Shown here piece after piece: positions 3,485 to 52,987 of a stretch of 64,000 nt of DNA. Positions within the stretch are counted from its first letter, which is position 1, and every line of letters starts with the position of its first letter. This DNA comes from Patescibacteria group bacterium (GTDB lineage: Bacteria > Patescibacteriota > Minisyncoccia > Phycocordibacterales > EsbW-18). The stretch spans positions 24,985 to 88,984 of the forward strand of contig JBBTTA010000003.1 in NCBI GenBank assembly GCA_038064475.1, given 5' to 3'. The position numbers were made by a program, and so were the translations under genes. The notes under the pieces were generated by a model. The model was given only the letters and a program-made list of their open reading frames with translations, was not told the DNA's origin and ran no database searches.

Positions 3485-3512
3485 TCTGTTCTCTGTTCTC
3501 TGTTCTCTGTTC
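3485..3512. repeat. Heptanucleotide tandem repeat (tctgttc)x4 between the surface-protein stop and capA start
   Basis: Four perfect units read directly, flanked by partial units. Confidence 0.9.
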
Positions 3513-25185: not shown

Positions 25186-25355
25186 GTTTGTTTGCCCGAG
25201 TGGCACTTGGAAGCTTCGCTTCCAAGTGTGTGCCGACACTACTTGCTTCGCAAGATCTGTCCGCACTATATATTGTGCGACGCTTCCTTTACTTTCACAA
25301 ACAATTCCTGTATAAAACCTACAGAAGGTCTACTCAGCCCGAAAAGGAGAAACGT

Positions 25356-27580: not shown

Positions 27581-27631
27581 TTTACATAGAAAAAGAACTG
27601 TAATTTGCTAAACTCAAAGGAGCACACCACC

Positions 27632-31809: not shown

Positions 31810-31867
31810 AAGCAATCACATTACAAACAGTATCCCAGCAAATTTACCTGATTCGCGGAAAACGTTC

Positions 31868-36233: not shown

Positions 36234-36269
36234 AACTTTCAATTTTGACGATCGTCAAAATTGAAAGTT
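36234..36269. repeat. 36-bp perfect palindrome aactttcaattttgacgatcgtcaaaattgaaagtt overlapping the stop of the PaaX-like gene
   Basis: Read directly; shares the ttcaat...gacgatcgtc...attgaa core with 36849..36878. Confidence 0.9.
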
Positions 36270-36969: not shown

Positions 36970-37761
36970 ATGCAGCACCATCACGCAAAAAAACGACTCG
37001 GTCAGCACTTTTTGAAATCAACCAAAGCGCTCCATGCGATGTGTAACGCTGCGCACCTCTCACAGAATGATGTCGTACTTGAGATTGGTCCTGGGAAAGG
37101 AATTTTAACGCGCGAATTATTACAGAGCGGCGCACGTGTTGTTGCTGTTGAGAAAGATAGCGATCTTTTGCCGATCCTTACTGAAACATTTGTTGAAGAA
37201 ATAAAAAACAATCAGCTCACACTCATACATGGCGATGTGCGTTCGTTCGATCCAAACACACATGGGCTTGTTGAGGGAGAATACAAACTTGTCGCAAACA
37301 TTCCGTACTACATCACCGGAGAAATCATCTCCACATTTCTTGAACATGTTGCAGCTCCATCAACAATGATCTTGTTGGTACAAAAAGAAGTTGCTAATCG
37401 CATTGTTGCGCGAGATAAAAAAGAAAGTGTGCTTTCAATTGCAGTAAAAGCGTTCGGTACACCACGAAGTGTTGAGCGTGTTTCAAGAAAATATTTTTCT
37501 CCACCACCAAAAGTTGATTCTGCGATCATCGCAATCGAGAATATTTCACAAAAAAACTTCGCCTCTGTTTCGAAAAAAGAATTTTTCTCACTTCTTAAAC
37601 TTGGTTTTGCACAAAAACGAAAGAAGCTTGCGGGAAATATTTCGTCACGCATTTCAAAAGAAAAATTCGCAGCGTGGTGCGATGCGAATTCTGTTTCTCC
37701 CGATGTTCGTCCTGAAAATCTTTCAGTTAATCACTGGTTTTCTCTTGCGCAAATTCTCTAA
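36970..37761 (+). CDS. rsmA: 16S rRNA (adenine1518/1519-N6)-dimethyltransferase RsmA/KsgA
   Basis: GQHFL, VLEIGPGKGILTREL, NIPYYIT motifs. Confidence 0.9.
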   Translation: MQHHHAKKRLGQHFLKSTKALHAMCNAAHLSQNDVVLEIGPGKGILTRELLQSGARVVAVEKDSDLLPILTETFVEEIKNNQLTLIHGDVRSFDPNTHGLVEGEYKLVANIPYYITGEIISTFLEHVAAPSTMILLVQKEVANRIVARDKKESVLSIAVKAFGTPRSVERVSRKYFSPPPKVDSAIIAIENISQKNFASVSKKEFFSLLKLGFAQKRKKLAGNISSRISKEKFAAWCDANSVSPDVRPENLSVNHWFSLAQIL

Positions 37762-38230: not shown

Positions 38231-38968
38231 TTAATAAAATGTAAAAATAAATGGCATAAAGTTGCTTCGTCCCCCGACGGCATTCGTCACACCAATCTGA
38301 TATTCCATTTCAAACTGTTCTTCTTCATAAAAATCTGCGTTCTCTTCCAAAAATTCTTTTGGAAATGGTCCCTTGATCGTGACACGCATCGTCATGCCGT
38401 CAGCTGATGATACATTATTGAACTCCTCAAAGGCAGAGCCGACTTTGTTTCCTGTCGGAGAAAATCCGTACCCCTTGATTGTGACAACGGTGCCAACACC
38501 ACCTTTGCTCGGCGTAATCGACTGTATGGTTGGTGTGGTGCCCGTCGATCCCGTACTTCCACCACCAAATTTTGTACCTGTTGTGTTTGTGTACACCGTT
38601 ACACCTCCTGATGCCGAAGGTAGTGTTTCGCCTGACATGTGTGCTCGTGTGCGCTCTCCAAACACACCAGTACCAACCGTGAGTCCAATGGGGAAGAGAA
38701 TTTCTGTTGCGTGAAGTTCTTGATACTTCGAAACAGCCGCTGCAGTCAGAGGACCAAAATACGTACTTTCATATCCTGGAGAACCAATTCCTGATACAGA
38801 AACTTGTGTAAGTACGTTTGTATTCAGCACTTTTTGGAGTTCACGAACGTCTTCGCCCGTCGAACCAATCGTTAGTGTGCGCGAAAATACGGCCGCATGT
38901 GTGACTGAAATAGAAAAAAGAAGGATGAGTGCGAGAGAAAGAAGAGTTGTTGTACAAAATTTCTTCAT
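38231..38968 (-). CDS. Secreted protein with peptidoglycan-binding (PG_binding_1-like) and IPT/TIG-like domains
   Basis: Signal peptide MKKFCTTTLLSLALILLFSISVTHA; GSTGEDVRELQKVLN...GPLTAAAVSKYQ motif. Confidence 0.6.
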   Translation of the reverse strand: MKKFCTTTLLSLALILLFSISVTHAAVFSRTLTIGSTGEDVRELQKVLNTNVLTQVSVSGIGSPGYESTYFGPLTAAAVSKYQELHATEILFPIGLTVGTGVFGERTRAHMSGETLPSASGGVTVYTNTTGTKFGGGSTGSTGTTPTIQSITPSKGGVGTVVTIKGYGFSPTGNKVGSAFEEFNNVSSADGMTMRVTIKGPFPKEFLEENADFYEEEQFEMEYQIGVTNAVGGRSNFMPFIFTFY

Positions 38969-39155: not shown

Positions 39156-40148
39156 ATGAATGGGGGTTCTCCGTCTTATTTTTTGCGAAGACACAGCAAA
39201 CCAATTGCACTTCTAATTTGTGTCGTTGCTCTTATCACCGCAACGGTTATTGCGCGCCAAACAGAGTCTTCAGGAGCTGGCTTTATTCTTAAAGCAGGCC
39301 CTCAGGCAACACGTGTTTCTGTCACTGAAGTAGATACTGACAAGGACGGCCTCAAAGATTGGGAAGAATCACTTTTAAAAACCAATCCAACCCTTATAGA
39401 CACCGATGGTGATGGCTTACATGACAAAGAAGATGTTGAAAAAGAAGAGGAGGAACGTCGTGAGGAAGAAGAAAGACGAATTTCTGAAAATGTGGCCGCG
39501 GTCCAAGAACCAGAAAATTGGAATGATTTAAGTTACTCTCAGCAAACATCCCGCCTCTTTCTTGCGCAGTATCTTTCGTACAAAGATCCGGGCGAACCTT
39601 TGGGGGATGATGAAATTACCTCGATTGTAGAAAATCTTCCTGAATACGAAGCGCCCGAACGAGTGTTTGTTCCATTTTCAGATGATGACATTGTCGTAAC
39701 AGAAGATAATTCAGAGAGTGCGCTTCGCGCATATGGAAATGCACTCGCACTTATTTTAGAAAAACCAGCAGATGGAGATACCCCGAACGAATTACTTGTG
39801 CTGCAATCATTTGCATCAAGTGAAAATGGAGACACATTCGTAGAACAAGTCGATGCTGTTGTAGCACAATATACGTATGTACTTGATCGTATGAAAGTAT
39901 TGCCAGTTCCTGACATGCTTGCTGATGAACATCTCTTGATCATGAATAGAATGGGAGTTGTTCGAAATGACTTTGAAGTGATGTTGAAACTTCAGAAAGA
40001 ACCTTTCGTCGCAATTGCTGCAATAAGCGCATACAGTCGAGACTCAAGCGACATGGCAAACGCCTTTGATGCACTGCGCGCTGCGTTTGATGAGAGCGGT
40101 GTCGAGTTTGAAGATTCAGAGCCAGGAATCTTGTTTGCACAAGAATAA
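39156..40148 (+). CDS. Membrane-anchored protein with Asp-rich Ca-binding-like repeats (first gene of the T4SS-like cluster)
   Basis: Start MNGGSPSYF at 39156; TM IALLICVVALITATVIA; DTDKDGLKDWEE / DTDGDGLHDKED repeats. Confidence 0.55.
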   Translation: MNGGSPSYFLRRHSKPIALLICVVALITATVIARQTESSGAGFILKAGPQATRVSVTEVDTDKDGLKDWEESLLKTNPTLIDTDGDGLHDKEDVEKEEEERREEEERRISENVAAVQEPENWNDLSYSQQTSRLFLAQYLSYKDPGEPLGDDEITSIVENLPEYEAPERVFVPFSDDDIVVTEDNSESALRAYGNALALILEKPADGDTPNELLVLQSFASSENGDTFVEQVDAVVAQYTYVLDRMKVLPVPDMLADEHLLIMNRMGVVRNDFEVMLKLQKEPFVAIAAISAYSRDSSDMANAFDALRAAFDESGVEFEDSEPGILFAQE

Positions 40149-40149
40149 T

Positions 40150-41922
40150 ATGTTGCGTTTCTCATCACAAAAAAGCCGCTCAACCCTCCTCACTATCATT
40201 GCGGGCTTTGCTATTTCGGTCTTTCTGCTTATACCGTTTGTACAAGTGTCAACGGTGAAGGCAGATTTTCAAGACAACCTCGAGGAGTGTGGTGAAGCCG
40301 CTCTCATTTCGCTTATCGGCATGCTCATTTCTGCCGCAGCAACACGTGTACCAATTGATGATTGGCCAAGTTGGATCAAAGAACAGGTGATGGACTGTGT
40401 CGCATGGGCAGCAAAGGCTTGGATCATCGAAGACATGACCGGACAAACCGTGGCGTATGTTCAAACTGGTATCAACGGAAATCCTGCATTCGTTCAAAAT
40501 CTTCGACAGCATCTCACACGACAAGCGGATGTCATTGCAGGATCATTCATCGAACAAACAGTTCCGTTTCTCTGTTCTCCATTCCAAGCTGACATCCAGT
40601 TAGCACTCATGAATTTGTATCGAAATGCAAAAGGTGTTGGATATTACCAATATGCAAGTTGTACACTCACCGAAGCAGTTGAAAATGTTGATGACTTTAT
40701 TGGCGGAGATTTTTCTGCGGGAGGATGGGAAGGATGGTTTGCGTTTGTTGGTGATCCGTACAACAACCCGATCGGCTCCTACATCGAAACATCAAACGAA
40801 CTTGCATCACGTTTGAATGCAGCAGCTGAGGAAGAAAGAACGGAGCTCGCATTTGCTAGTGGATTTTTGCGCAAAAAAACACAGACGTGTTATGCGTACC
40901 CTCCAGAAGGTCAGACTGGAGCTCCGCAACAATTTACAATACGAGATGGGCAATCTTTGGAAGAAGCTTTAGCAGAAGCTGGTATTGATAGTGCAGCTGA
41001 ATACGAGTGTGATCCTGCACAAACAATCACGCCAGGAGAGACGGTAAAATCTGGGCTTGAAAGTGTGTTCAAAACAAACCTTGACCAAGTTGTTGCTGCA
41101 GATGAGTTGAATGAAATTATTGCACTCTGGCTTGGGTATCTTCTCTCTGATGTATTGACTGGTGACGAAGGTCTTGCGGGATATACAAACGAAGACTTTC
41201 CTGAACACGAAGGTGTGACAGAAGACGGAGATCCGTACGAAGATGATTTGCCACCAATTCAAACAACATGTGGAACAGGAGGTTGGCTTGAAGCGGCTCC
41301 GGGCGTCACACAAGAGTTCGAACCATATCACTTCGAACGAAATGGTTTGGTACTTGATGCACAACCAGGCAATGCAAATATTGCATTTGAACTTGATACA
41401 CCAGCTGAAGCGGGTGAGTACTACACAAAAGTACAGGTAAGTATTGATGTAGAGATCGGACCTTGGTACGAACCAATGCCAACCGATTTTCACCAAATCA
41501 TGTATATCCAACGCGAAAGTAACCCAAACAATTACGACTGGCGTGAAAACAACCTTGGTATTTTGAACCTCCGTGGTCCTGGTCAAAATAAGTTTATTGC
41601 AGGACACAATTTGAATCTTACGATCGGTGATTGTACAAAATCAAAGAGCTCAAGCTTCTCGCCACAACAAGGTCAGCGTTACACATTCGTGTATGGATAC
41701 GACACAACACAAAGACTTGCGTGGGCAGAAGTAAAGCAAGGAAATCAGATTGTGACATCTGTTGGATTTAGCCCGACGGCAGAATTCATTGAAGCGATCC
41801 ACCCGTTGCATCGTGGCAATGAAGGGTTCTTCATCTCAATCGGTGGTCCAGACGGATACCACGCTCCTGAAGTGCCGATGTACGGATGGAAGTTCTACGA
41901 CCTCGTCGTCGACTTTGAATAG
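40150..41922 (+). CDS. Large secreted hypothetical protein (590 aa)
   Basis: Start MLRFSSQ at 40150 immediately after the previous stop; signal anchor LLTIIAGFAISVFLLIPFVQVSTVKA. Confidence 0.55.
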   Translation: MLRFSSQKSRSTLLTIIAGFAISVFLLIPFVQVSTVKADFQDNLEECGEAALISLIGMLISAAATRVPIDDWPSWIKEQVMDCVAWAAKAWIIEDMTGQTVAYVQTGINGNPAFVQNLRQHLTRQADVIAGSFIEQTVPFLCSPFQADIQLALMNLYRNAKGVGYYQYASCTLTEAVENVDDFIGGDFSAGGWEGWFAFVGDPYNNPIGSYIETSNELASRLNAAAEEERTELAFASGFLRKKTQTCYAYPPEGQTGAPQQFTIRDGQSLEEALAEAGIDSAAEYECDPAQTITPGETVKSGLESVFKTNLDQVVAADELNEIIALWLGYLLSDVLTGDEGLAGYTNEDFPEHEGVTEDGDPYEDDLPPIQTTCGTGGWLEAAPGVTQEFEPYHFERNGLVLDAQPGNANIAFELDTPAEAGEYYTKVQVSIDVEIGPWYEPMPTDFHQIMYIQRESNPNNYDWRENNLGILNLRGPGQNKFIAGHNLNLTIGDCTKSKSSSFSPQQGQRYTFVYGYDTTQRLAWAEVKQGNQIVTSVGFSPTAEFIEAIHPLHRGNEGFFISIGGPDGYHAPEVPMYGWKFYDLVVDFE

Positions 41923-41923
41923 T

Positions 41924-44107
41924 ATGAGTACAAACATTACAAAAATCCTTGGGGTGGTGATCGGAACATTCGCGATCTTTGTAATGTTTTTTGTTGTGGC
42001 TCCAGAGAAAGCAGAGGCCATTGAATGTCCTATTGGGCAAGTTGATGTTGGTGGAAGTTGCGTGGACTACGAAGAAAACCCCGAGGACGTCTCTTCTGCA
42101 AACTTAGACAACACAGAACAACCCCCAGAGTTTGGTTGTTCATTTAGTGCTTTTGATTTTTGGGGAGGTGTAAAAGGTTGTATGGCAGCCGTGTCTTACA
42201 CCATCATGTCCTTCTTTGCCATATTTCTTGGTGTTGCAGGACTCCTTCTTAACGGTGCGGTTGAGTTAACAGTTAGAAACATTGGTCCGTTTGTGAATGG
42301 TGTAGGGGATAGTGTTACTGGAATTGAACTTGCGTGGAAGTTGTTTAGAGATCTGGGCAATATCGTTATTCTTTTTGTGCTTTTGTTCTCTGCAATTGGA
42401 ATCATCTTCCGCACTGACAACATTGTTCCGCGCAAGACACTCGGAAAAGTAATTATTGCTGCGTTTCTTATTAATTTCAGCCTCTTCTTCACCAAAGCAA
42501 TTATCGATGTGTCGAACGTGTTTACGTTCACTATTCACAATGAAATTCAAAAAATCAGTGAAACAAATGACGATAATCTTGTCATTGGTGTTGCGGGCGC
42601 ATTCATGAATGGTCTAGATCCAATAACGATATACCGTAGTTTTCAAAAAGAGGCCGCTTTAGGAAAACCTGTTGAGAGCCATATTTTCCAACAAATGATT
42701 TTTGGGACCATCGTTCTGTTGGTAGCAACGTTTGTCTTTTTGGTCATGGCAGCGATGCTTTTGATTCGTTTTGTGATTCTTTTGTTCCTTTTGGTAACTT
42801 CTCCAATTGGTTTTGTGGGTGGTTTAATTCCTAAACTTCAAAAATATTCTACTGATTGGTGGAATGCTCTTCTTGGGCAAGCAATGTTCGCTCCAGTGTT
42901 GATGCTTTTTATACTTATTTCAATCTTGCTTATCAATAGCCCTGGTTTCAAAGACGCATTAAACTACAGTCCCGACTTAAAACTTGTTGATAGCAATGTT
43001 GGAAGTTTTCTTGGATTTGCTGGGAGTGGGGTAACAGGCATCATTCAATATGTTGTGGTGATTGGCCTTCTCATCACAGGACTCGTTGTTGCAAAGAAAA
43101 CAGCGGGAGATCTTGGAAAAGGCGCTGTCAGTTGGGTATCGAAGAAAGCAGGTTCATTGGCATTCGGTGCAACAGCAGCGGCAGGCTCGTATAGTATTGG
43201 AAGGTTTGGAGGAAAGCTCGCCGACTCACAATTTGCAAACACACTTCAGGGAAGCTCTAATTTTGCTGCGCGCCTAGTTGGTCGTGGTCTCATTAATACT
43301 GGAAAATGGACTGGGAAAAGAAGTTTCGATATTCGAGGAACATCTGCTGGAAAACAGTTGGATGCCGAAAAGGGTGCTTCTGGATTTATTGAGCGTGAAA
43401 AAGCAGAAAAGAAACGAATTGAGGAAGCGCGCAAAAAAATTAAACCTGATGACACAAGTGCAGCTGAACGTTTGGCTCTTAAGGCTGACCTTGAGTCGGG
43501 CAGCGTTGAGCGTGAAAAACTCAAGGCTGAGATCAAAAAACTTGAGGGTGTGGAAAAAAGCACTCTTACTACAGATGCTCAAAAAGCAGATGCTCGAGAA
43601 AAACGAGAGCGTCTTGAGAAAGAAAATGCAGTATGGCTTGCTCGCGAAGAGCGTTTGGACAAACTCGAAAAACAAAGTCCTGCTGTGCAAGAAGAGCGCC
43701 AGAAACAGGCACGAAAAGAAATTGCCGATTTGGCAAAAACACTTCAAAGCCATCAAATCCGTTTCGTTCAAGACATCATGAACGAAAAGAACGATGATAA
43801 ACGAAAGAAAATGCAGGATAGTCTAACTGGAAATGGGGCAAGGCTCGCAAAAGCAATTGAAAACCTTAGCGCTGCAAGTAAGAACATGGGTGATATCCAA
43901 AAAGCAGGTCAACTTGAATGGGCAAATCGTATGGCTAACGAAGGTGGTCCAATAAAGGCTGCTGCAGATAACATTAGAAAGGAGCTTAATAAATCAAAGG
44001 GTAAGAAAGCACTTGAGGATGCTATTGAGGGGATGGATAAAGAGGGCGGTGGAAAAGATAAGGGAGAAAAACCTGAAAGCGAAACACCTGCTCCAGATAA
44101 AAAATAA
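41924..44107 (+). CDS. VirB6/TrbL-like polytopic membrane protein with long charged coiled-coil C-terminal tail
   Basis: Start MSTNITK at 41924; at least 6 hydrophobic helices; about 330 aa Lys/Glu-rich C-terminal region. Confidence 0.55.
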   Translation: MSTNITKILGVVIGTFAIFVMFFVVAPEKAEAIECPIGQVDVGGSCVDYEENPEDVSSANLDNTEQPPEFGCSFSAFDFWGGVKGCMAAVSYTIMSFFAIFLGVAGLLLNGAVELTVRNIGPFVNGVGDSVTGIELAWKLFRDLGNIVILFVLLFSAIGIIFRTDNIVPRKTLGKVIIAAFLINFSLFFTKAIIDVSNVFTFTIHNEIQKISETNDDNLVIGVAGAFMNGLDPITIYRSFQKEAALGKPVESHIFQQMIFGTIVLLVATFVFLVMAAMLLIRFVILLFLLVTSPIGFVGGLIPKLQKYSTDWWNALLGQAMFAPVLMLFILISILLINSPGFKDALNYSPDLKLVDSNVGSFLGFAGSGVTGIIQYVVVIGLLITGLVVAKKTAGDLGKGAVSWVSKKAGSLAFGATAAAGSYSIGRFGGKLADSQFANTLQGSSNFAARLVGRGLINTGKWTGKRSFDIRGTSAGKQLDAEKGASGFIEREKAEKKRIEEARKKIKPDDTSAAERLALKADLESGSVEREKLKAEIKKLEGVEKSTLTTDAQKADAREKRERLEKENAVWLAREERLDKLEKQSPAVQEERQKQARKEIADLAKTLQSHQIRFVQDIMNEKNDDKRKKMQDSLTGNGARLAKAIENLSAASKNMGDIQKAGQLEWANRMANEGGPIKAAADNIRKELNKSKGKKALEDAIEGMDKEGGGKDKGEKPESETPAPDKK

Positions 44108-44115
44108 ATTTACGT

Positions 44116-44733
44116 ATGGATGAACAAGATTTTAATAAAGTAATACAAAACCGTTTAGCTGAACTACCAGAAAGTGTTCGGTCGGCAATTGCACATATAA
44201 ATTACCCTCAACAAGTTCAAAACCTGATGCAGCGCTTTCAGCTACGGCTCGATCAGGCGGGAATCGTTGATAGAGAAATTATGCTTGTTCTTCTAGGCAT
44301 GGAGCACCCCGACATACTCCTCAATAATCTTGTGCGTGAAGGCGGAATTGCGCGTGATGTTGCAACACAAATAGTTAATGATCTGAATGAAAATATTTTT
44401 AAAGCAATCAAACAAGATCTTGTGGAGACGTACACAAAAGATCAACTGGTTGAAGAAATTTTGGACCCAAATAAATCGAGAACGGTTTTGCCCGATAGAT
44501 CTGCCACACAAAGTACACCAAGCCAATCTCCTCAAGTGACGCTCGCACAACCAACCCCAACTCAACCAACCGGTATTGATCGTACGATGCCAAATGACAT
44601 TGCAAAAACAAAGCTTGAACAAAGCTTTCGTATTCCTCCTCAAACAACAACAGTTCCTCTGCATGGCGATATCCCAAAAATGACACCCCCCGCACGCCGC
44701 ACACTAGATCCCTATCGAGAACCCACGCAGTAG
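44116..44733 (+). CDS. Hypothetical protein
   Basis: 205 aa, Pro/Thr/Gln-rich C-terminus. Confidence 0.45.
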   Translation: MDEQDFNKVIQNRLAELPESVRSAIAHINYPQQVQNLMQRFQLRLDQAGIVDREIMLVLLGMEHPDILLNNLVREGGIARDVATQIVNDLNENIFKAIKQDLVETYTKDQLVEEILDPNKSRTVLPDRSATQSTPSQSPQVTLAQPTPTQPTGIDRTMPNDIAKTKLEQSFRIPPQTTTVPLHGDIPKMTPPARRTLDPYREPTQ

Positions 44734-44804
44734 GAGATGGAAGATAGAATATAGAAGATAGGAAAACTAAAATATATTTGATGTGTGTCGTGTAGAGTTT
44801 TTAG

Positions 44805-45182
44805 ATGGAAACTCCACTTAAGGATTTTACAAGCTTACGAGTGTGGCAACACTCTCGTCATTTTGCTGTAAAGATTTATAAAATTACCAGCGCATTTCCT
44901 CGAGATGAGATTTTTGGTTTAACGAGTCAACTTAGGCGTGCTTCCGTATCAATTGCTTCAAATATTGCGGAAGGTTTTGGCAGATTTTCGTTTAAAGAAA
45001 AAGTTCAATTCTACAATATTGCTCAATCCTCACTAATTGAAACGCAAAATCAGCTTATAATTTCAAAAGATGTCGACTATCTCCCTGAAAAAGAGTTTCA
45101 TATGGTATACAATGAGTCTGTGCTTATAGCGAAGATGTTATCTGCCCTCGTTAGGTCGTCTCGATCAAAATTTGGCTCTTAA
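44805..45182 (+). CDS. Four-helix-bundle protein (TIGR02436-like, the family often found in 23S rRNA intervening sequences)
   Basis: 125 aa; LRVWQHSRHFAVKIYKITSAFPRDEIFGLTSQLRRASVSIASNIAEGFGR pattern; flanked by inverted heptamer-repeat blocks 44735..44770 and 45186..45214. Confidence 0.7.
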   Translation: METPLKDFTSLRVWQHSRHFAVKIYKITSAFPRDEIFGLTSQLRRASVSIASNIAEGFGRFSFKEKVQFYNIAQSSLIETQNQLIISKDVDYLPEKEFHMVYNESVLIAKMLSALVRSSRSKFGS

Positions 45183-45217
45183 CCCATCTTCCATATTCCA
45201 TCTCCTATATCCAACTC

Positions 45218-45652
45218 ATGCGATTCGAAGTGCCACAATTTATTGAAGTCGAGGACAAAATATTTGGTCCTTTAACGTTCAAACAATTCGTCTACCTCGC
45301 CGGAGGTGGTGGTTTGTGTGTGATTATCTGGATTTTCGTTCCAAAAATCATCGGTATCTTTCTTATTCTCGCTGTTGCTGGTTTTGCGCTCGCACTTGCG
45401 TTCTACCAACCCAACAATAAGCCGTTTGTGGCTCTTCTTGAGGCCGCACTTCGCTATGGAACGGGAGGAAAGCTCTATATTTGGAAAAAAGAAGAGAAAA
45501 AGGCAGTGTCATCAGCAACTGCAGGTCAAAAGGCTCAAGATGCGGCCGCAAATCTCTCTGTCCCTCGTCTTTCAGACAGCCGTTTGCGCGATCTTGCATG
45601 GAGTCTCGATGTACATGACTCACTCTATAGCGATCAAGCAGAAAACAAATAA
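45218..45652 (+). CDS. PrgI/VirB3-like small membrane protein
   Basis: FIEVEDKIFGPLTFKQFVYLAGGGGLCVIIWIF matches the PrgI-family N-terminus; position before VirB4. Confidence 0.55.
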   Translation: MRFEVPQFIEVEDKIFGPLTFKQFVYLAGGGGLCVIIWIFVPKIIGIFLILAVAGFALALAFYQPNNKPFVALLEAALRYGTGGKLYIWKKEEKKAVSSATAGQKAQDAAANLSVPRLSDSRLRDLAWSLDVHDSLYSDQAENK

Positions 45653-45715
45653 TAGAAAGGTATTTCATACACAGAACGTGTTGTGGATGCTCATTCGTAG
45701 GTTAGAATAGAACTA

Positions 45716-46372
45716 ATGGCTCAAACAAAAGCCCAGTCGGCGCAGGCCTTTGTACCTGTGAAAGAAATTCGTAATGGTATTGTCGTTCTCAAAGACGGCT
45801 CTCTTCGCGCAATTTTGCTCGCTTCGTCATTGAATTTTGCCCTCAAGTCTGAAGACGAGCAATCGGCTATCATTTTGCAATTCCAAAATCTCCTCAACTC
45901 AGTTGAATTTCCAATACAAATCTTTATTCAGTCACGCGAACTCGATATTCGTCCGTACCTAGCACTCCTTGAAGCACAATTAAAAGAGCAGACCATCGAC
46001 CTCATTAAGGTACAGACACATGAGTACATCGACTTCATCAAAGGTTTCACTGAAAACGTTAATATTATGTCAAAGAGTTTCTTTATCGTGATTCCATACA
46101 GCTCCGCAATGATTAAAACTGCGGGTGGTATCAGTGGTGTCGTGGGCGGACTTGTTGGCACAAAAAAGAGTCGTGATCCAAAAGCAGCACTTGATCTCTT
46201 TGAGGAGGGGAGAAGTCAATTGGAGCAACGCGTCAGTGTTGTCTCACAAGGTCTCTCGCGCACAGGTATTCGCGTTGCACAACTTGGTACTGAAGAGTTG
46301 GTCGAGCTCTACTACAAATTATTTAATCCGGGTGATTCAGAAAAACCAATTAAACTTGGACCAACTTCATAA
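45716..46372 (+). CDS. VirB4-type ATPase, N-terminal segment (ends at in-frame TAA)
   Basis: VPVKEIRNGIVVLKDGSLRAILLASSLNFALKSEDEQ typical VirB4/TraC N-domain; same frame as the next ORF. Confidence 0.6.
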   Translation: MAQTKAQSAQAFVPVKEIRNGIVVLKDGSLRAILLASSLNFALKSEDEQSAIILQFQNLLNSVEFPIQIFIQSRELDIRPYLALLEAQLKEQTIDLIKVQTHEYIDFIKGFTENVNIMSKSFFIVIPYSSAMIKTAGGISGVVGGLVGTKKSRDPKAALDLFEEGRSQLEQRVSVVSQGLSRTGIRVAQLGTEELVELYYKLFNPGDSEKPIKLGPTS

Positions 46373-46375
46373 TCT

Positions 46376-48310
46376 ATGGCATTCCTCGATATTTTTAAAA
46401 AGAAAAAGAATGATGCGCTCGATATTGTTCCGGTGTTGCCGAAAGATATCTACGAAGCGGGTGTGCTGGAATTGCAAGATATAATTGCACCGTCAGCGTT
46501 GCGTATCACACCACGTGAACTATCACTCGGAGATAAAATAGTTCGCACGTTCTTTGTTATTTCATATCCGCGATTTCTTCCTGACAACTGGATTTCTCCA
46601 ATTATCAACCTCGACAAGGTGTTCGATATTTCTATTTCAATTATTCCTGTTGAAACATCGTCAGCGCTCAAAGATTTCCGAAAACGCGTTGCCGAAGTAC
46701 AAAGTCAGATTCACACACGTGAAGAAAAAGGTCTTGTGCGCGATCCGATTTTGGATGCTGCGTACCAAAACCTTGAGAACCTCCGTGATCAATTGCAGCA
46801 GGCAACAGAGAAACTTTTTGATGTTGGTCTCTACATCTCGATGTATGCAGATAGTGAGACAGAGCTTGATAAAATCGAGTCTGAAATCCGCTCAATTCTT
46901 GAATCTCGACTCGTGTATGTGAAGCCAGCACTCTTTCAACAGGAGCAGGGATTTAAGAGTGTGATGCCAATTGGAACGGATGAATTGGGTGTGCACTCAA
47001 AACTGAACACGTCTCCGTTGTCGAGTTTTTTTCCATTCGTCTCATTCGACCTCACGTCGGACAAAGGAATCCTGTATGGTGTCAATCGTCACAACTCAAG
47101 TTTGATTCTCTTCGATCGTTTTTCAATGCCGAACTACAACTCAGTGACATTCGCCACATCTGGTGCCGGAAAATCATACGCAACAAAATTGGAAATTCTT
47201 CGTACACTCATGTTCGACACTGAAGTGATTGTTCTCGACCCTGAACGTGAATACGAATACATGGCAGAAGCGATGGGTGGGCGTTACTTCAATATTTCTT
47301 TGACATCAGAACATCACATCAATCCATTTGATCTTCCTCCTGCACGTGAAGATGAAACTCCATCAAACGTATTGCGTTCACACATTGTGACGTTGGTTGG
47401 TCTTTTCCGCATCATGTTCGGCGGTCTCACACCTGAAGAAGATGCAATCATCGATCGCGCAATCACCGAAACGTACGCACTCAAAGACATCACCGGTGAA
47501 GCAGACTTCACCGGAACCGAACCACCACTTCTTTCTGACTTTGAATTGGTGCTTGCGGGTATGCAAGGAGCAGAATCACTCGTACAACGATTGTCGAAGT
47601 ACACGAAAGGAACGTGGGCAGGTTTCATCAACAAACCAAGTAACGTCGACATCAATAAAAAGTTCGTAGTGTTCTCGGTGCGTGACATGGAAGACGAATT
47701 GAAACCAGTTGCTATGTACCTCGTTGCAAACTACATCTGGAGCGCGGTGCGAAAGAATTTGAAAAAACGATTGCTCGTTATTGATGAGGCGTGGTGGATG
47801 ATGAAAGATGAAGATACTGCATCACTTCTCTTTGGTCTCGCAAAACGTGGACGAAAATATTACCTCGGTATTGCAACAATCACACAAGACGTCGGTGACT
47901 TCTTGCGCTCACCATATGGTTTGCCAATCATCACCAACTCTTCAATTCAGTTGCTCTTGAAGCAATCTCCATCATCTATTGATGTTGTGCAGCGCACCTT
48001 TAATCTCACTGACGAAGAGAAGTATTTGTTACTTGAGTCAGAGGTAGGAGAGGGAATCTTCTTTGCTGGTCTTAAACATGTGGCAATTAAGAGTATTGCC
48101 TCATATACCGAGGATCAAATCATTACATCCGATCCATCCCAAGTTTTGGCCCTCAAACAGGCTCGTACGGAATGGAAAAACACTAAGCGGGGTGCTGAAG
48201 CAGCAGGTGAAGTGGCTCCATTGCCTCCAATTCTTCCTCCAGCTCCAGCGGAACCCACAATTCCGCAAGCCCCAGGAACACCAAACACCGATCTTAAGGG
48301 TATTGTCTAA
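46376..48310 (+). CDS. VirB4-type ATPase, main segment with Walker A/B
   Basis: Walker A TSGAGKSYAT, Walker B RLLVIDEAWW, CagE/TrbE/VirB4 family architecture. Confidence 0.75.
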   Translation: MAFLDIFKKKKNDALDIVPVLPKDIYEAGVLELQDIIAPSALRITPRELSLGDKIVRTFFVISYPRFLPDNWISPIINLDKVFDISISIIPVETSSALKDFRKRVAEVQSQIHTREEKGLVRDPILDAAYQNLENLRDQLQQATEKLFDVGLYISMYADSETELDKIESEIRSILESRLVYVKPALFQQEQGFKSVMPIGTDELGVHSKLNTSPLSSFFPFVSFDLTSDKGILYGVNRHNSSLILFDRFSMPNYNSVTFATSGAGKSYATKLEILRTLMFDTEVIVLDPEREYEYMAEAMGGRYFNISLTSEHHINPFDLPPAREDETPSNVLRSHIVTLVGLFRIMFGGLTPEEDAIIDRAITETYALKDITGEADFTGTEPPLLSDFELVLAGMQGAESLVQRLSKYTKGTWAGFINKPSNVDINKKFVVFSVRDMEDELKPVAMYLVANYIWSAVRKNLKKRLLVIDEAWWMMKDEDTASLLFGLAKRGRKYYLGIATITQDVGDFLRSPYGLPIITNSSIQLLLKQSPSSIDVVQRTFNLTDEEKYLLLESEVGEGIFFAGLKHVAIKSIASYTEDQIITSDPSQVLALKQARTEWKNTKRGAEAAGEVAPLPPILPPAPAEPTIPQAPGTPNTDLKGIV

Positions 48311-48315
48311 ATACT

Positions 48316-48828
48316 ATGGACGAGGAACAGAAATCCCAAAGGCGAATATCGAACGTAACCGCCGTATTGATGGTTATTGTTGCGGTGGTTCTTGATCTTA
48401 TAAACCTCATTCCCGTTGTTGGTGTTTTGGTTGGTAATATCCTCGCTCTTTTAATATTCGGCTTGTGGTATCTCATGCTTGGAATCCCAATTATGGGGGC
48501 ACGGCAATTTGCACGGTGGGGAACAAGTTGGCTTATCGATACCATATCTGTTGGTTATCTCCCCGGCATTACGCTCGGTGCTATACTTATTATTGTAGTA
48601 ACACGTACCGAGGATAAGACCGGAATAAGCCTTATTGATAAGGTAAAGCCAACTTCGGCAGGAACGCTCAAAAACGCTCGGCGTGCGGCAAACCCAGAGA
48701 GAACATTACAAGCACGAGATCGATTGGAACGCCGATTGGCGCGCCGAGCACAAGAAAGTGAGGGTGCGGCAACAAAACCAAAAGAGCACCCCCAAATCAA
48801 AGACATTAATTACCCCAAGGCGGCATGA
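48316..48828 (+). CDS. Membrane protein, hypothetical (T4SS cluster)
   Basis: 170 aa, 3-4 TM helices, basic C-terminal tail. Confidence 0.5.
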   Translation: MDEEQKSQRRISNVTAVLMVIVAVVLDLINLIPVVGVLVGNILALLIFGLWYLMLGIPIMGARQFARWGTSWLIDTISVGYLPGITLGAILIIVVTRTEDKTGISLIDKVKPTSAGTLKNARRAANPERTLQARDRLERRLARRAQESEGAATKPKEHPQIKDINYPKAA

Positions 48829-49562
48829 CGTACGAATCAAGAATCAAGAATCAAGAATCAAGAATTTGCGTTTTGTTTTTAGCGTGCTTCTTGTTTCTTG
48901 CTTCTTGCTTCGTTTTCGCGCGGAGCGCGATAGCACAGAATACTGCAACAGTTGATTTGGTATGGGAAGCAAACTCCTACGTGCCACCGTTCTATAAAGG
49001 TAAAGCCTTAACAACAACCGATGGAGATGTTGATGTATATGCATTTGTTCCAAGTACGTTTGGCAATCCGCTACGCGCAACATATACATGGGAATTAAAC
49101 AGCCAAGTACTTGGCAGTCTCTCGGGTGTAGGTAGATCATCATTGCGTGTTTCAGGTTCTCCTTTTATTGATGATCGTGCAATTAGAGTGCGTGTTGTTG
49201 GAGAGAATGGTCGTGAGGGTTTTGGATATGTACGCATTCCGGCGGTAAAACCAACTATCATGGTCTATGTTGATTCACCACTTGCTGGTGTGCAATTTGG
49301 AAACGCTGTGGTTACTCGTTTAGAAGCACAAACAGAGACCGATCTTACACTAACCGCATACCCATACTTCTTTTCAACATCAGATCGCAATGAAAATCTT
49401 TCATATACATGGAATGTAAACGGTGTTGCGTCAGAAACACGAGGACCAACACTTGTTGCGCGCTCTGAAACAACAGGGACGTCAACGGTAAGTGTTGAGA
49501 TAAACAATGTTTCTAAGATTCTTGAGCGTGCTTCGAAGATATTCTCTGTCGTTCTACAATAG
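48825..49562 (+). CDS. Secreted hypothetical protein with heptamer repeat in its 5' coding end
   Basis: ATGA overlap with the previous gene; n-region MTYESRIKNQESRI followed by h-region CVLFLACFLFLASCFVFA. Confidence 0.55.
   Translation: MTYESRIKNQESRICVLFLACFLFLASCFVFARSAIAQNTATVDLVWEANSYVPPFYKGKALTTTDGDVDVYAFVPSTFGNPLRATYTWELNSQVLGSLSGVGRSSLRVSGSPFIDDRAIRVRVVGENGREGFGYVRIPAVKPTIMVYVDSPLAGVQFGNAVVTRLEAQTETDLTLTAYPYFFSTSDRNENLSYTWNVNGVASETRGPTLVARSETTGTSTVSVEINNVSKILERASKIFSVVLQ
48834..48868. repeat. Heptanucleotide tandem repeat (gaatcaa)x4 plus variant, inside CDS codons 4-14
   Basis: Read directly; the ATG is at 48825. Confidence 0.9.
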
Positions 49563-49601
49563 AGTTATAAGAATAGAAAACAGAGAACAGTATATACTCA
49601 A

Positions 49602-50486
49602 ATGATAAATTTCAAATTTCAAATTTCAAAAAAAGCTCCTTCTTTCTTTTTGTTATTTGTTATTTGTTATTTGTTATTTGTGATTACGCTCCCTGTGTTT
49701 GCACAACAAAACCCACCAACGGTAGATCTCCTTGTTAAGGATTTACCGGGAATTGGCCCTGCTACAGATCTTAAGGGCTTTCTTCAGGGAATATTTAAAC
49801 TCACACTTGGTATTGCGGTCACCGCCGCTATAGCAATCATTGTGTGGAATGGTATTCGCTACATGGTGAGCGATGCGGTTGGTGGAAAAGAGGATGCAAG
49901 GAAATGGATTGGAGAAGCGTTGTGGGGATTGGTACTCGCATTTTCTGCTGTGCTTATTCTTTCAACAATAAACCCACAGCTTACACAATTTGATTTTCTT
50001 ACAACACTGCAAGAAGTGCGTGAAGCTGCTGGTGGTCCGCCGGGGGGTCCTCCCCCTCCTCCACCTCCACCAGGAGATACTCCTCCGGACGGACAATTTA
50101 CCTATCAACCTAGAGTAGCTCCACAACGACTACATGCGTCTTCTCAACTAGAAACATTATTAAGTTGTATTGCAAACAGGGTTCCGGGAAATGTTGGAGA
50201 GATTTCGTCAATATCAGACGAAATGATTACGTCGGGTCAAAGAACCTTTGAGGAATGTGCCGCCGGTGGACAATCTGTTGGATGTGCCCACAGAGCGGGT
50301 TCGCTTCACTATGGTGGATTATTTTGTGTTGGACAGTCATATGCTGTCGACTTTGGAGACGAACAAAATATGAATGTTCTTGGTGATGCGGCCGTATTGT
50401 GTAACCCAAACGTTGCAGTAATAAACGAAGGAAATCATGTGCACATAAGTTTAGGAGATAGTGCGGGTTGTGGACCAGGAAACTAG
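49602..50486 (+). CDS. VirB2/TrbC-like pilin-type membrane domain fused to a C-terminal LAS/M15-like zinc-peptidase-like domain
   Basis: Signal peptide, two hydrophobic helices (LTLGIAVTAAIAIIVW; ALWGLVLAFSAVLILS), Pro-rich linker, C-terminal CAHRAGSLHYGG...AVDFGD...NEGNHVHISLGD (SxHxxG / AxD / HxH pattern). Confidence 0.45.
   Translation: MINFKFQISKKAPSFFLLFVICYLLFVITLPVFAQQNPPTVDLLVKDLPGIGPATDLKGFLQGIFKLTLGIAVTAAIAIIVWNGIRYMVSDAVGGKEDARKWIGEALWGLVLAFSAVLILSTINPQLTQFDFLTTLQEVREAAGGPPGGPPPPPPPPGDTPPDGQFTYQPRVAPQRLHASSQLETLLSCIANRVPGNVGEISSISDEMITSGQRTFEECAAGGQSVGCAHRAGSLHYGGLFCVGQSYAVDFGDEQNMNVLGDAAVLCNPNVAVINEGNHVHISLGDSAGCGPGN
49641..49675. repeat. Heptanucleotide tandem repeat (ttgttat)x4 plus variant ttgtgat inside the signal-peptide coding region
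   Basis: Read directly; encodes LLFVICYLLFVI. Confidence 0.9.
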
Positions 50487-50488
50487 CC

Positions 50489-51778
50489 ATGAAAAAAGCA
50501 CTCATCATCACGGGTATATTGTGTGTCATCATCGCAGGGGTGCTTGCGTTTTTGTGGTATTCATCAATCAAACCTTCTGCAACAACATCATCTGACGCCG
50601 GTTCGTCTGATAGAACCTTTTCACCATTCAGTTCATTTGTAGATTTTCTTACGGGAGACGACAGTGAAACAGAAAACACGGAACAGATAACAGATAACGG
50701 AGGGGAGTCGACAGCTCGTTCTGTGTATGATTTGTTGTCTATTACACCTGCGTACGAAGTAACTGACGCACTTGTTGCAAACGCAGTTATTGTATTCACA
50801 GGAACAACAACAGGAAATATACTTCGCTATGTGGAGCGCGAAACAGGACATATTTATGAACTATCACTTCTTTCTGGTGTCCTGCGACGCCTTTCAAATA
50901 CAACCGTGCCTCGTATTCAGGAAGCATATTTTGGAAATAACGGTTCTTTAATTGCACTGCAGTACTTGGGCGAGGATGGAGAAACAATAGAAACATTTGT
51001 GGGAAGCGTCACAACAACTTCTATTGAATCGTCGAGTGAGTTCACGGGAGATTTTCTTGCACAAAATATTCAAACCATAACACTCCATCCAACACAACCT
51101 GGTGTTTTCTACACTCTAAAAGCAGGTGGTGGTACTGCGGGGCGGTTGTTTGATCCCGTATCAAAACAGATTGCTTCTTTATTCTCGTCTCCGTTGTCTG
51201 AATGGACGGCTTTGTGGAATAGCGGCACAAACATTTATCTCCATACAAAACCCTCTTCGTCAGCTCAAGGTTTTGCATATGCAATCGCGCCTGGAAGCGC
51301 TACACCAGCGCGTGTTTTTACAAACACGTTCGGCATAACCCTTCTTCCAAACCCTTTTAATAAAAACATCCTAGTTGGATCCTCAAAAGACACACCAAAA
51401 ATGTCTCTTTTTAATAACACCGATGGTTCCACGGTGTCACTTGTGGGCACAACGTTCCCTGAAAAGTGTGTGTGGAAAACGGCAACGGTCCTTGTGTGTG
51501 CAATTCCAGAGTCGGCTTCTTCAATTGATTCATGGTACAACGGCAGTGTTTCATTTTCTGATAGTGTTTGGAAAATAAATGTTGAAACGGGGCTTACTGA
51601 TTTCTTGTTCGATAGCGAACAAACCCAAAAAGAATTTGATGCAACACATCTCTCAGTAAGTTCTGATGGGACAATACTTTCTTTTATAAACAAAAAAAAC
51701 TCACACCTTTGGGTTGCAAGTCTTTTACCTCGAACCGATACAATTGATGTTAATGCTGAATTTGAAGAAAATTACTAA
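50489..51778 (+). CDS. Membrane-anchored/secreted hypothetical protein (430 aa)
   Basis: Start MKKALIITGILCVIIAGVLAFLWY at 50489. Confidence 0.5.
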   Translation: MKKALIITGILCVIIAGVLAFLWYSSIKPSATTSSDAGSSDRTFSPFSSFVDFLTGDDSETENTEQITDNGGESTARSVYDLLSITPAYEVTDALVANAVIVFTGTTTGNILRYVERETGHIYELSLLSGVLRRLSNTTVPRIQEAYFGNNGSLIALQYLGEDGETIETFVGSVTTTSIESSSEFTGDFLAQNIQTITLHPTQPGVFYTLKAGGGTAGRLFDPVSKQIASLFSSPLSEWTALWNSGTNIYLHTKPSSSAQGFAYAIAPGSATPARVFTNTFGITLLPNPFNKNILVGSSKDTPKMSLFNNTDGSTVSLVGTTFPEKCVWKTATVLVCAIPESASSIDSWYNGSVSFSDSVWKINVETGLTDFLFDSEQTQKEFDATHLSVSSDGTILSFINKKNSHLWVASLLPRTDTIDVNAEFEENY

Positions 51779-51779
51779 A

Positions 51780-52505
51780 CTACTTTTTTTCCTCGAGTCG
51801 TTTACGAATTACATACTCTTGTCCAATAGAGAAGATGTTGCTTGTTGTCCAGTAGAGCGCGATCGATGCGGGAAGTGATGCGGAAATAAAAACAATAATG
51901 AGAGGAAAAATATATTTCATTTGGAAATGCATTCCTTTCATAAAATCTGCACCGAATGTTCCTTTCGCACCCGCTTGCGGTTGCACCGACTTCATCAAGA
52001 GTGCTTGAATAAATTGTGTAACACCAGCAAGGATTGCAATCGGAATACTTTTTATTGTCACATCAACAATTCCAAGAAAGAGTGTGCTTGCATGTGTTGG
52101 ACCTGACACAAATGAGTAAAGAAAATCAGGATTCACTACAGGTAGCCCTGATTTCAAGAACATAAAATAAAGGCCAAAAATAATAGGAATTTGGATACCA
52201 AGGAAGAAGATACTTGCAAAAGGATTAATCTTTTCGCGGCGATATACCTCCATTATTTTCATCGCCTGCTGTTGTGAATCGTTTTTGTATTGTGCACGAA
52301 GTGCATCAATTTCTGGTTGCACTTTCTGTGCGACCATCTGCGTTCGGAGTGATTTTTGAGCGAGTGGAAAAAGAACACAACGAATAAGAATCGTAAAGAA
52401 AATAACTGCAATACCAAGATCAGCCCAAGGAAACAGCTGCATTAAAAAGACGAGTCCGTTGTAGAGAGGTGTGGTGACAAGTGTTCCAAAAATTCCTGTA
52501 GACAT
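51780..52505 (-). CDS. yidC: Membrane protein insertase YidC (short form)
   Basis: 241 aa; FFTILIRCVLFPL...conserved YidC/Oxa1 core; rnpA-yidC synteny. Confidence 0.85.
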   Translation of the reverse strand: MSTGIFGTLVTTPLYNGLVFLMQLFPWADLGIAVIFFTILIRCVLFPLAQKSLRTQMVAQKVQPEIDALRAQYKNDSQQQAMKIMEVYRREKINPFASIFFLGIQIPIIFGLYFMFLKSGLPVVNPDFLYSFVSGPTHASTLFLGIVDVTIKSIPIAILAGVTQFIQALLMKSVQPQAGAKGTFGADFMKGMHFQMKYIFPLIIVFISASLPASIALYWTTSNIFSIGQEYVIRKRLEEKK

Positions 52506-52524: not shown

Positions 52525-52845
52525 TTATGAGAGAAGGGAAGTTAGTTCTTTTTGAAGTGTTGTGTGTGTTTGTTCGTCTGTTTTTTTCTTCGCAAAGACC
52601 ACATATGTGTGTCCGGTGTCTTTTTTGAGAAGCGTGTGGAGTATGTGATACACACGACGACGAATAAGATTTCGTGTAACTGCTTTTGCTGCAACTTTTT
52701 TTAAAACAACAACAGCAAAACGTGATGGTTCGTTTTGTTGTATGTTGTTTTTTGTTACGGTGAGATACGTTCCTGTAACCCGTCGTCCGTTTTGTGTTGT
52801 TTTTGCAAACGTTCCCTTCGAAATTCGTTGTCGTTTGGGGAACAT
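52525..52845 (-). CDS. rnpA: Ribonuclease P protein component
   Basis: Basic protein between rpmH and yidC; start taken at MFPKRQRISKG (52845); longer ORF to 52884 would overlap rpmH. Confidence 0.75.
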   Translation of the reverse strand: MFPKRQRISKGTFAKTTQNGRRVTGTYLTVTKNNIQQNEPSRFAVVVLKKVAAKAVTRNLIRRRVYHILHTLLKKDTGHTYVVFAKKKTDEQTHTTLQKELTSLLS

Positions 52846-52852
52846 GAGGAGA

Positions 52853-52987
52853 TTACGCTGAAATTCGCTTGCGGCCTTTTGCACGACGACGCTTCAACAT
52901 ATTTTTTCCTGTCGAAGACTTCATGCGCTTACGAAATCCGTGTGTTTTTGCTCGTTTCTTCTTTTTTGGTTGATAGGTTCGTTTCAT
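52853..52987 (-). CDS. rpmH: 50S ribosomal protein L34
   Basis: Minus-strand [44 protein letters not shown]; not in the ORF track (short). Confidence 0.9.

Follow-up and report, generated by a model that had tools for sequence, protein, structure and literature searches.

The 64-kb window analyzed here is the whole stretch of DNA from position 24,985 to 88,984 of the forward strand of contig JBBTTA010000003.1 (assembly GCA_038064475.1, Patescibacteria group bacterium), and all coordinates below are positions within it. On its plus strand, at 39156..51778, lies a cluster of genes resembling those of a type IV secretion system (T4SS). The cluster consists of 12 co-directional open reading frames (ORFs), all of which start with ATG and are spaced by -4 to 71 nt. 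An earlier annotation made from the DNA letters (the first-pass annotation) had recognized this packed run and counted thirteen genes with several ATGA overlaps; we count 12 genes and a single such overlap, at 48825-48828, along with two 1-nt spacers. The last gene stops 1 nt short of the convergent yidC. We consider it very probable that the cluster is the vertically inherited, chromosomal T4SS of a Paceibacteria-class bacterium from the Candidate Phyla Radiation (CPR), derived from mating-pair formation class FATA (MPF-FATA) and belonging to the "Patescibacteria clade" of these systems, for which we propose an epibiotic mechanism.

The VirB4 ATPase and the membrane components

The ATPase had been read as one VirB4 gene spanning 45716..48310. 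The ATPase itself is confirmed, whereas the single gene is not, as an in-frame TAA at 46370-46372 divides the stretch into a 218-residue TrsD-like ORF and a 644-residue VirB4 core. The core matches the Pfam families TraG P-loop and AAA_10 and exceeds the cut-off of the NCBIfam model NF045971 ("VirB4-like conjugal transfer ATPase, CD1110 family"; 373.6 bits, cut-off 325). It covers profile positions 185-734 of 752 and therefore comes without the N-terminal domain. Among PDB structures, it matches the C-terminal domain of VirB4 from Thermoanaerobacter (4ag5, E = 1.6e-40) and TrwK of R388 (E = 7e-8). A motif scan located the Walker B motif LLVIDE at residue 466; the strict pattern G..G.GK[ST] gave no Walker A motif, and ATSGAGKS was read by eye in the translation. 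The database holds at least 8000 homologues, and the 120 listed are 76-93% identical to the core and mostly 600-700 residues long, with named organisms that are Patescibacteria metagenome-assembled genomes (MAGs) or generic "bacterium" labels. Of the curated models, that of the MPF-FATA family CD1110 fits this VirB4 best.

The TrsD-like protein matches positions 99-233 of the NCBIfam model VirB4_plasma (E = 1.8e-12), positions 3-128 of CD1110 (E = 1.7e-4) and, weakly, TrsD (E = 0.002), while its profile returned 0 matches in the PDB. Related loci were obtained by scanning one genome per GTDB species, which gave 529 confirmed relatives; the best 80 loci among these (L001-L080), picked by VirB4 similarity and with a VirB4 74-85% identical to that of the window, were compared. 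The TrsD-like protein and VirB4 are adjacent but separate ORFs in 78 of 78 related loci. In 63 of these their reading frames differ; each of the three stop codons is used, and spacers can be as long as 590 nt. Recoding and pseudogene formation, considered as explanations of the TAA inside "VirB4", are rejected on these observations. As the two ORFs are separate in every locus and the listed VirB4 homologues are mostly of the length of a core, the split is, by this comparison, ancestral, and the in-frame arrangement in the window is a coincidence. The pair corresponds to the TrsD and VirB4 pair of Patescibacteria described by Quiñonero-Coronel et al. (2025, Microb Genom, PMC12102498).

Two membrane components accompany the ATPase. 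The small PrgI/VirB3-like protein named in the first-pass annotation matches Pfam PrgI well above the cut-off (E = 6.5e-11, 43.1 bits, cut-off 27). The VirB6/TrbL-like protein is polytopic, with about seven strong hydrophobic segments, and ends, as had been described, in a charged, coiled-coil-like tail; this has 332 residues, is 37% charged and is predicted to be cytoplasmic. Its assignment to VirB6 draws on its orthologues and is weak for the window protein itself: 9 of 40 syntenic VirB6-like orthologues match TrbL (best E = 1.9e-7), and no other family is matched by three or more. A search of the VirB6-like profile against the PDB gave coiled-coil noise alone.

Five further ORFs appear to encode accessory or extracytoplasmic proteins, apart from the 590-residue protein and the pilin treated below. 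The TSP3-repeat protein, previously noted for its calcium-binding repeats, has one N-terminal hydrophobic segment and falls just short of the TSP3_bac cut-off (24.7 bits, cut-off 25). The 205-residue protein has neither a family match in the Pfam and NCBIfam scans nor a hydrophobic segment, and the 170-residue protein has two strong hydrophobic segments and no family match. An N-terminal hydrophobic segment is present in both the 245- and the 429-residue protein. The former probably carries Ig-like or PKD-like β-domains, given its weak match to PKD (E = 0.0065) and that of its profile to the Ig-like domain of phage Hoc (E = 0.003), and the latter is possibly a β-propeller, with faint, non-significant hints of TolB, prolyl-endopeptidase, DPPIV_N and PD40.

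One gene, 44805-45182, matches Pfam 23S_rRNA_IVP (E = 3.8e-38). In related loci this gene lies between TrsD and VirB4 (L005, L019, L029, L035) or upstream of PrgI (L004, L026, L072). Because its operon position differs between species, as expected of a passenger, the gene is on this comparison a passenger and no part of the T4SS. Proteins of this family are four-helix bundles, distantly like bAvd, and their genes look like small mobile or passenger genes favoring this highly conserved Paceibacteria locus.

No relaxase, VirD4/coupling protein or VirB11 family was matched in the scanned ORFs of the window (all of at least 256 residues and several shorter; about 16 ORFs of 130-220 residues were outside the scan), in line with the first reading. 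Of the components that define a conjugative MPF-FATA T4SS, the scanned ORFs therefore include a VirB4 of the class (NF045971) and neither a relaxase nor a coupling protein (VirD4/TcpA).

Conservation and setting of the locus

For the comparison of neighborhoods, 46 species-level loci of Paceibacteria with complete flanks were used. All 46 have PrgI, TrsD, VirB4 and the 245- and 429-residue proteins; among the other genes of the cluster, the VirB6-like protein is present in 45, the 590-residue protein in 42 and the pilin in 39. Of the flanking genes, yidC and dnaA are present in 45/46, dnaN in 43/46, ksgA in 40/46 and PBP1 in 34/46; rnpA was detected in 20/46. These conserved genes keep equal relative offsets, and their orientation is retained in 97-100% of the loci in which they were detected. 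The variable genes are those of the TSP3 protein (27/46), the 205-residue protein (22/46), the 170-residue protein (detectable by BLAST in 7/46) and the IVP protein (6/46). The neighborhood comparison that the first-pass annotation had proposed was thus strongly positive, with core genes in 45-46 of 46 loci, ksgA in 40 of 46 and both order and orientation kept. By gene order in these genomes, the cluster keeps one place throughout the class, with ksgA on one side of it and yidC-rnpA-rpmH/dnaA-dnaN on the other, and the retention of position and order in 40-46 of 46 genomes argues for vertical inheritance.

The proteins differ widely in their rate of change. Across the 52 genomes bearing all markers, the median identity to the window protein is 77.5% for VirB4, 60.1% for TrsD, 56.6% for DnaA, 56.1% for PBP1, 50.5% for PrgI, 44.0% for DnaN, 42.6% for YidC, 35.9% for the pilin, 30.9% for the 245-residue protein, 29.2% for the 429-residue protein and 28.2% for both the VirB6-like and the 590-residue protein. 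In 52/52 genomes the identity of VirB4 exceeds that of DnaA; choosing the loci by VirB4 similarity inflates this identity somewhat, which counts against our interpretation, yet the gap to DnaA is large. The pattern fits a strongly constrained cytoplasmic engine combined with fast-evolving extracytoplasmic parts, as would be expected of an essential engine with a diversifying surface.

Of the best 80 loci, those with names come mainly from Paceibacteria/Parcubacteria MAGs (Wolfe-, Campbell-, Taylor-, Nomura- and Zambryskibacteria). Many TPA_asm loci (among them L003, L007, L012, L019 and L025) are titled "uncultured Candidatus Saccharibacteria bacterium"; their VirB4 is 75-80% identical and their synteny with the Paceibacteria, Parcubacteria and Wolfebacteria loci is complete, so the titles look generic or mistaken.

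The cluster has a G+C content of 42-45%, equal to that of its flanks and the rest of the window, and the cumulative GC skew is lowest at about 36-38 kb. The window shows no enrichment of E. coli-type DnaA boxes (17 observed, 15.9 expected), and oriC was not located. The proximity to the replication origin claimed in the first-pass annotation therefore rests on the marker genes and the skew minimum, both of which bear it out, and not on a mapped oriC.

Table 1. Genes of the T4SS-like cluster and of its downstream flank (positions in the window)
Feature	Position	Strand	Basis or remark
TSP3-repeat protein, 330 residues	39156..40148	+	TSP3_bac near cut-off; membrane-anchored accessory
590-residue membrane-anchored protein	40150..41922	+	Cys-containing helical N-terminal half; variable C-terminal concanavalin-A-like lectin β-sandwich (predicted)
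VirB6/TrbL-like polytopic membrane protein	41924..44107	+	Hydropathy; TrbL via orthologues
205-residue soluble hypothetical protein, variably present accessory	44116..44733	+	No family match
23S_rRNA_IVP four-helix bundle, putative passenger gene	44805..45182	+	Pfam
PrgI/VirB3-like small membrane protein	45218..45652	+	Pfam PrgI
TrsD-like, free-standing VirB4 N-terminal-domain homologue, 218 residues	45716..46372	+	NCBIfam VirB4 models
VirB4 ATPase core, 644 residues	46376..48310	+	NF045971, Pfam, PDB 4ag5
170-residue membrane protein, variable accessory	48316..48828	+	Hydropathy; no family match
245-residue secreted or anchored protein, conserved core	48825..49562	+	Hydropathy; weak β-domain matches
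VirB2/TrbC-type pilin with predicted C-terminal LAS-fold Zn metallopeptidase domain	49602..50486	+	Pfam pilin profiles
429-residue membrane-anchored extracytoplasmic protein, conserved core	50489..51778	+	Hydropathy; synteny
yidC	51780-52505	-	Pfam 60KD_IMP
rnpA	52525-52884	-	Pfam Ribonuclease_P
rpmH	52853-52987	-	L34 sequence read directly
dnaA	53107-54474	+	Pfam Bac_DnaA
dnaN	54698-55798	+	Pfam DNA_pol3_beta

Upstream, the cluster is flanked by ksgA (36970-37761) and a UvrD helicase gene, and elsewhere in the scanned window most genes have housekeeping roles (NusA, trigger factor, RNase Y, UvrD, KsgA, PBP1, RuvB, RuvC). About 10 kb past the T4SS, at 61694-63373 (minus strand), lies a PilB-like type IV pilus/type II secretion ATPase (T2SSE + MshEN, E = 2.9e-112), so that the origin region holds parts of two envelope machines. 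Both the T4SS and the type IV pilus are reported to be essential in Saccharibacteria. The gene of a secreted PG_binding_1 protein (38231-38968, minus) diverges from the cluster's first gene, with an equivalent position in 14/46 loci, and a secreted protein with LysM and Peptidase_M23 domains (32481-33506, minus) is encoded upstream of the cluster. An ORF6N-domain protein (31724-32374, plus) and a PaaX-middle (Cas2-like) domain protein (36268-36828, minus) are also present, neither adjoining the T4SS. The only tyrosine recombinase of the window is Xer-like (24271-25266, minus) and lies 14 kb from the cluster. Three ORFs have no Pfam match at E = 1e-4, namely 3512-6346 (minus, 944 residues), 6537-7712 (minus, 391 residues) and 27605-29155 (plus, 516 residues), and a ribosomal protein L10 leader was found at 2189-2318 (minus; Rfam RF00557, 46.9 bits, gathering score 44).

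The pilin with a predicted peptidase domain and its putative lectin-ended partner

The first-pass annotation had proposed a VirB2-like pilin with a peptidase-like domain, and both parts are supported. The protein exceeds the cut-offs of the TrbC/VirB2 (30.8 bits, cut-off 27.9) and T4SS_pilin (28.9 bits, cut-off 26.6) profiles, as VirB4 and PrgI do theirs, and its hydrophobic segments at residues 15-33, 63-81 and 103-121 correspond to a signal peptide and two hydrophobic helices. The VirB2/TrbC part (residues ~1-127) is followed by a Pro/Gly linker and a C-terminal domain (residues ~161-294). Among the syntenic orthologues, conservation is limited to the pilin part (residues ~5-150). What follows it is highly diverse: 46 of 58 syntenic pilins have a C-terminal extension of at least 80 residues, the 51 extensions of at least 60 residues fall into 41 sequence clusters, and the Pfam domains found on them are VanY (2), subtilase, NlpC/P60, 3D and SLT_3. 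In the closest relatives, the pilins have a VanY-like domain in common, in which the motifs H-x6-D and H-W-H are invariant.

The C-terminal domain of the window pilin (residues 161-294) has no significant Pfam match, and searching the full pilin by sequence against the PDB gave nothing useful. A word-indexed homologue search with this domain recovered just 2 proteins, and an exhaustive HMMER search was needed to define the family. It gave 301 cluster representatives, in all of which the domain is C-terminal; a pilin domain precedes it in 124 of 128 full-length representatives, and some distant members add SLT or glucosaminidase domains. In 35 family members, Ser74, His76, Tyr77, Gly78, Ala88, Asp90 and His121 are invariant and His119 is at least 90% conserved. 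The family profile matched Hedgehog N-domains alone in the PDB, with E = 0.04 and an alignment on the zinc motifs. The AlphaFold model of the domain (predicted local distance difference test score, pLDDT, 96.5; predicted template modeling score, pTM, 0.90) shows the Hedgehog/DD-peptidase fold of LAS zinc peptidases (clan MD, M15-like), with His76, Asp90, His121 and His119 supplying the expected His/Asp/His ligands (H-x-n-D ... H-x-H). According to this model, the domain is a LAS zinc-peptidase fold with its predicted zinc ligands intact, in keeping with the peptidase reading that structure prediction had been suggested to check.

None of the 80 related loci has a copy recognized by a hidden Markov model of the window LAS domain. 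When this domain was compared by profile-profile alignment with the VanY-like one in the pilins of the closest relatives, no significant match resulted (probability 7%). We take the two to be separate subfamilies of LAS, with no claim that they are directly homologous. VirB2 proteins have an extracytoplasmic C terminus. An extracytoplasmic position of the LAS domain fits its conserved cysteines and the Pro/Gly linker. A putative role in cutting peptidoglycan is suggested because SLT and glucosaminidase domains co-occur with it and because syntenic pilins bear VanY, NlpC/P60, SLT_3 and 3D domains, and we infer that the domain would be the VirB1-type wall hydrolase of the system, delivered within the pilin. 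The turnover of enzyme types between close species favors the host wall over the bacterium's own as its target. An association of VirB1 homologues with virB4 is noted for Paceibacteria specifically (PMC12102498) and may reflect the same fused proteins. The window has one pilin-like ORF only, and among related loci 61 have one and 7 have two.

The 590-residue protein received no annotation from the Pfam or NCBIfam scans, and its PDB sequence search gave coiled-coil noise. Its N-terminal half is conserved, membrane-proximal and helical, with invariant Cys, Trp and Gly positions, whereas its C-terminal half is variable. An AlphaFold2 model built with 39 database homologues has a mean pLDDT of 71, with low confidence in the N-terminal half and values mostly of 85-98 over the C-terminal 200 residues, which form a lectin-like, concanavalin-A-like β-sandwich in the predicted structure. 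This protein is a candidate host-surface binding component.

Interpretation and relation to known systems

The domesticated, relaxase-less chromosomal apparatus proposed in the first-pass annotation for a CPR bacterium is supported by both the profile searches and the conservation of the neighborhood. Its remark that the gene set itself is unusual was overstated. The cluster is a rediscovery of the published Patescibacteria T4SS, because PMC12102498 and PMC10633639 describe the gene set, TrsD, the pilins, the missing relaxase and the proximity to the origin. Quiñonero-Coronel et al. report a monophyletic Patescibacteria VirB4 clade nested in MPF-FATA, with TrsD, PrgI/VirB3, VirB6 and VirB2-like pilins near virB4, relaxases nearly absent, and virB4 of Paceibacteria and Microgenomatia close to dnaA, dnaN, rnpA, rpmH and ksgA. 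Wang et al. (2023, Cell, PMC10633639) found that epibiotic growth of Southlakia epibionticum requires its T4SS (SEML1_0006-0019), which is without recognizable coupling and relaxase proteins, and the pilins of that system. In a 2025 review (PMC12857230), such systems count as established newcomers within the T4SS superfamily, and a 2026 preprint describes, in a cultured relative, tubular parasite-to-host structures, possibly T4SS pili, and the acquisition of host RNA (10.64898/2026.06.21.733656). The accessible sections of PMC12102498 and PMC10633639 make no mention of a pilin-hydrolase fusion, a lectin-ended partner or the conservation of VirB4 relative to DnaA; the pilin fused to a putative cell-wall-cutting zinc peptidase is possibly one unreported detail.

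In the mechanism that we propose, the single cell membrane would contain the VirB6-like channel, and VirB4, docked to it through TrsD and PrgI, would power the assembly of a pilin-based tube or stalk. The extracytoplasmic LAS zinc peptidase of the pilin would cut peptidoglycan peptide stems, taking the role of VirB1, and let the structure cross a cell wall, be it that of the bacterium, of its host or of both. The lectin-like 590-residue protein and the conserved secreted 245- and 429-residue proteins would form the fast-evolving surface part that touches the host cell. The machine might then move macromolecules between bacterium and host in support of an epibiotic lifestyle rather than conjugation.

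Several points weigh against this interpretation, in addition to the selection of loci by VirB4 similarity. The window's own VirB6-like protein stays under the TrbL cut-off (E = 0.0032, 17.7 bits, cut-off 25.9), so that the VirB6/TrbL label is backed by a profile for its orthologues and not for the protein itself, and a VirB8-like component was not recognized. Beyond the 64-kb window there could be a relaxase or a coupling protein, and VirD4 homologues are indeed far from virB4 in many genomes (PMC12102498). A pilin bearing a 130-residue globular C-terminal domain may not polymerize; cleavage could remove the domain, the domain could decorate the filament, or the whole protein could be just a hydrolase anchored in the membrane. 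The essentiality data come from another class (Saccharimonadia), and for the window cluster the function is predicted from its genes.

Another possibility, which we think has a real though minor chance of being correct, is that the apparatus is a nucleic-acid import machine, like ComB of H. pylori or the archaeal Ced system, and draws host DNA or RNA into a bacterium unable to make nucleotides. A relaxase and a type IV coupling protein (T4CP), which export needs, are unmatched in the scanned ORFs, the authors of PMC12102498 propose the import of DNA or other macromolecules, and host-RNA acquisition and tubular connections have been reported in the cultured relative. The VirB4 core also matches the model of the DNA-import protein CedB, but does so weakly and partially (E = 3.3e-7, far under the cut-off) and only within the shared ATPase core. 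Moreover, no nucleic-acid-binding component was identified in the cluster, the sequence carries no indication of direction or substrate, and Wang et al. favor protein export or another role.

Somewhat more doubtful is the idea that the fused protein is not a pilus subunit at all, its VirB2-like hairpin serving only as membrane anchor and docking module for a VirB1-type hydrolase with which the bacterium would remodel its own wall, and no extended pilus being made. Gram-positive T4SSs normally do without pili and require such a hydrolase (PMC12102498), the window has this single pilin-like ORF, and extensions of at least 80 residues on most syntenic pilins might hinder polymerization. However, the C-terminal domains differ so much between close species (41 clusters among 51 extensions, including LAS, NlpC/P60, SLT and subtilase domains) that an own-wall target is hard to explain, tubular structures have been seen in the cultured relative, and there may be more pilin genes beyond the window. 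A mobile conjugative element (an integrative and conjugative element or its remnant), inserted beside the origin and serving now or recently in DNA transfer between cells, is rejected as very improbable: its VirB4 scores above the threshold set for a model from a conjugation family (NF045971, CD1110/CTn2 type), and PrgI, TrsD, a VirB6-like protein and a wall hydrolase form the core of Gram-positive conjugation systems (PMC12102498), but relaxase, coupling protein and a nearby integrase are unmatched in the scanned ORFs (apart from the distant Xer-like recombinase), VirB4 is more conserved than DnaA, the published tree has one monophyletic Patescibacteria clade with rare inter-class transfer (PMC12102498), and the synteny across 40-46 of 46 species genomes together with a base composition equal to that of the flanks largely refutes this reading and rules out recent integration.

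Within the preferred interpretation of an epibiotic T4SS, three leads stand out: the pilin-LAS fusion with its swapped hydrolases, the lectin-ended partner, and a VirB4 constrained above DnaA beside diversifying surface parts. They point to host-envelope recognition and breaching as the host-adapting part of the system. As a speculation that we think more apt to fail than to hold, the single pilin of Paceibacteria could be a modular, armed subunit, whose VirB2 hairpin builds or docks to a tube and whose swapped lytic domain on the outside breaches the host wall, with the variable lectin-ended 590-residue partner choosing the host surface. If so, the swapped domains would be host-range determinants of the epibiont, and the T4SS an envelope-piercing feeding device. 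Few machines have been shown to be essential to the epibiotic way of life of these very abundant and largely uncultured bacteria, the Patescibacteria T4SS being one of them; the window offers a clean, complete Paceibacteria example with corrected gene boundaries rather than a new system.

The LAS domain can be compared with the Hedgehog N-domain, the Streptomyces albus Zn DD-peptidase, the phage L-Ala-D-Glu peptidases Ply500 and T5, VanX/VanY and MepA. Unlike these, its His-Asp ligand loop has 13 residues rather than ~6, it has several conserved cysteines and no significant Pfam match, and its family lies nearly always behind a T4SS pilin (124/128), its peptidase activity being predicted. Among the Gram-positive MPF-FATA systems, namely the CTn2/CD1110 subclass, Trs of pGO1 and Prg of pCF10, the cluster is alike in its VirB4 core and PrgI, both over the model cut-offs, in a free-standing VirB4 N-domain protein like TrsD of pGO1, in a monoderm architecture without VirB7, VirB9 and VirB10, and in the requirement for a peptidoglycan hydrolase. 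It is unlike them in that no relaxase, coupling protein, oriT or PrgB-type adhesin was found in the cluster, in possessing a VirB2-type pilin, which Gram-positive systems lack, and in being chromosomally fixed and, by its synteny, vertically inherited. The Patescibacteria-clade T4SS (PMC12102498) is the closest counterpart, and the window shares with it a VirB4 with a separate TrsD beside it, the set of PrgI/VirB3, VirB6-like protein and VirB2-like pilin, and a chromosomal position by dnaA, dnaN, rnpA, rpmH and ksgA, as in Paceibacteria, with no relaxase or T4CP matched in the scanned ORFs. The Southlakia system differs from it in having a six-gene pilin array and in encoding its hydrolases, peptidase and lysozyme homologues, separately downstream of virB4 (PMC10633639), whereas the window has a single pilin gene fused to a LAS peptidase domain.

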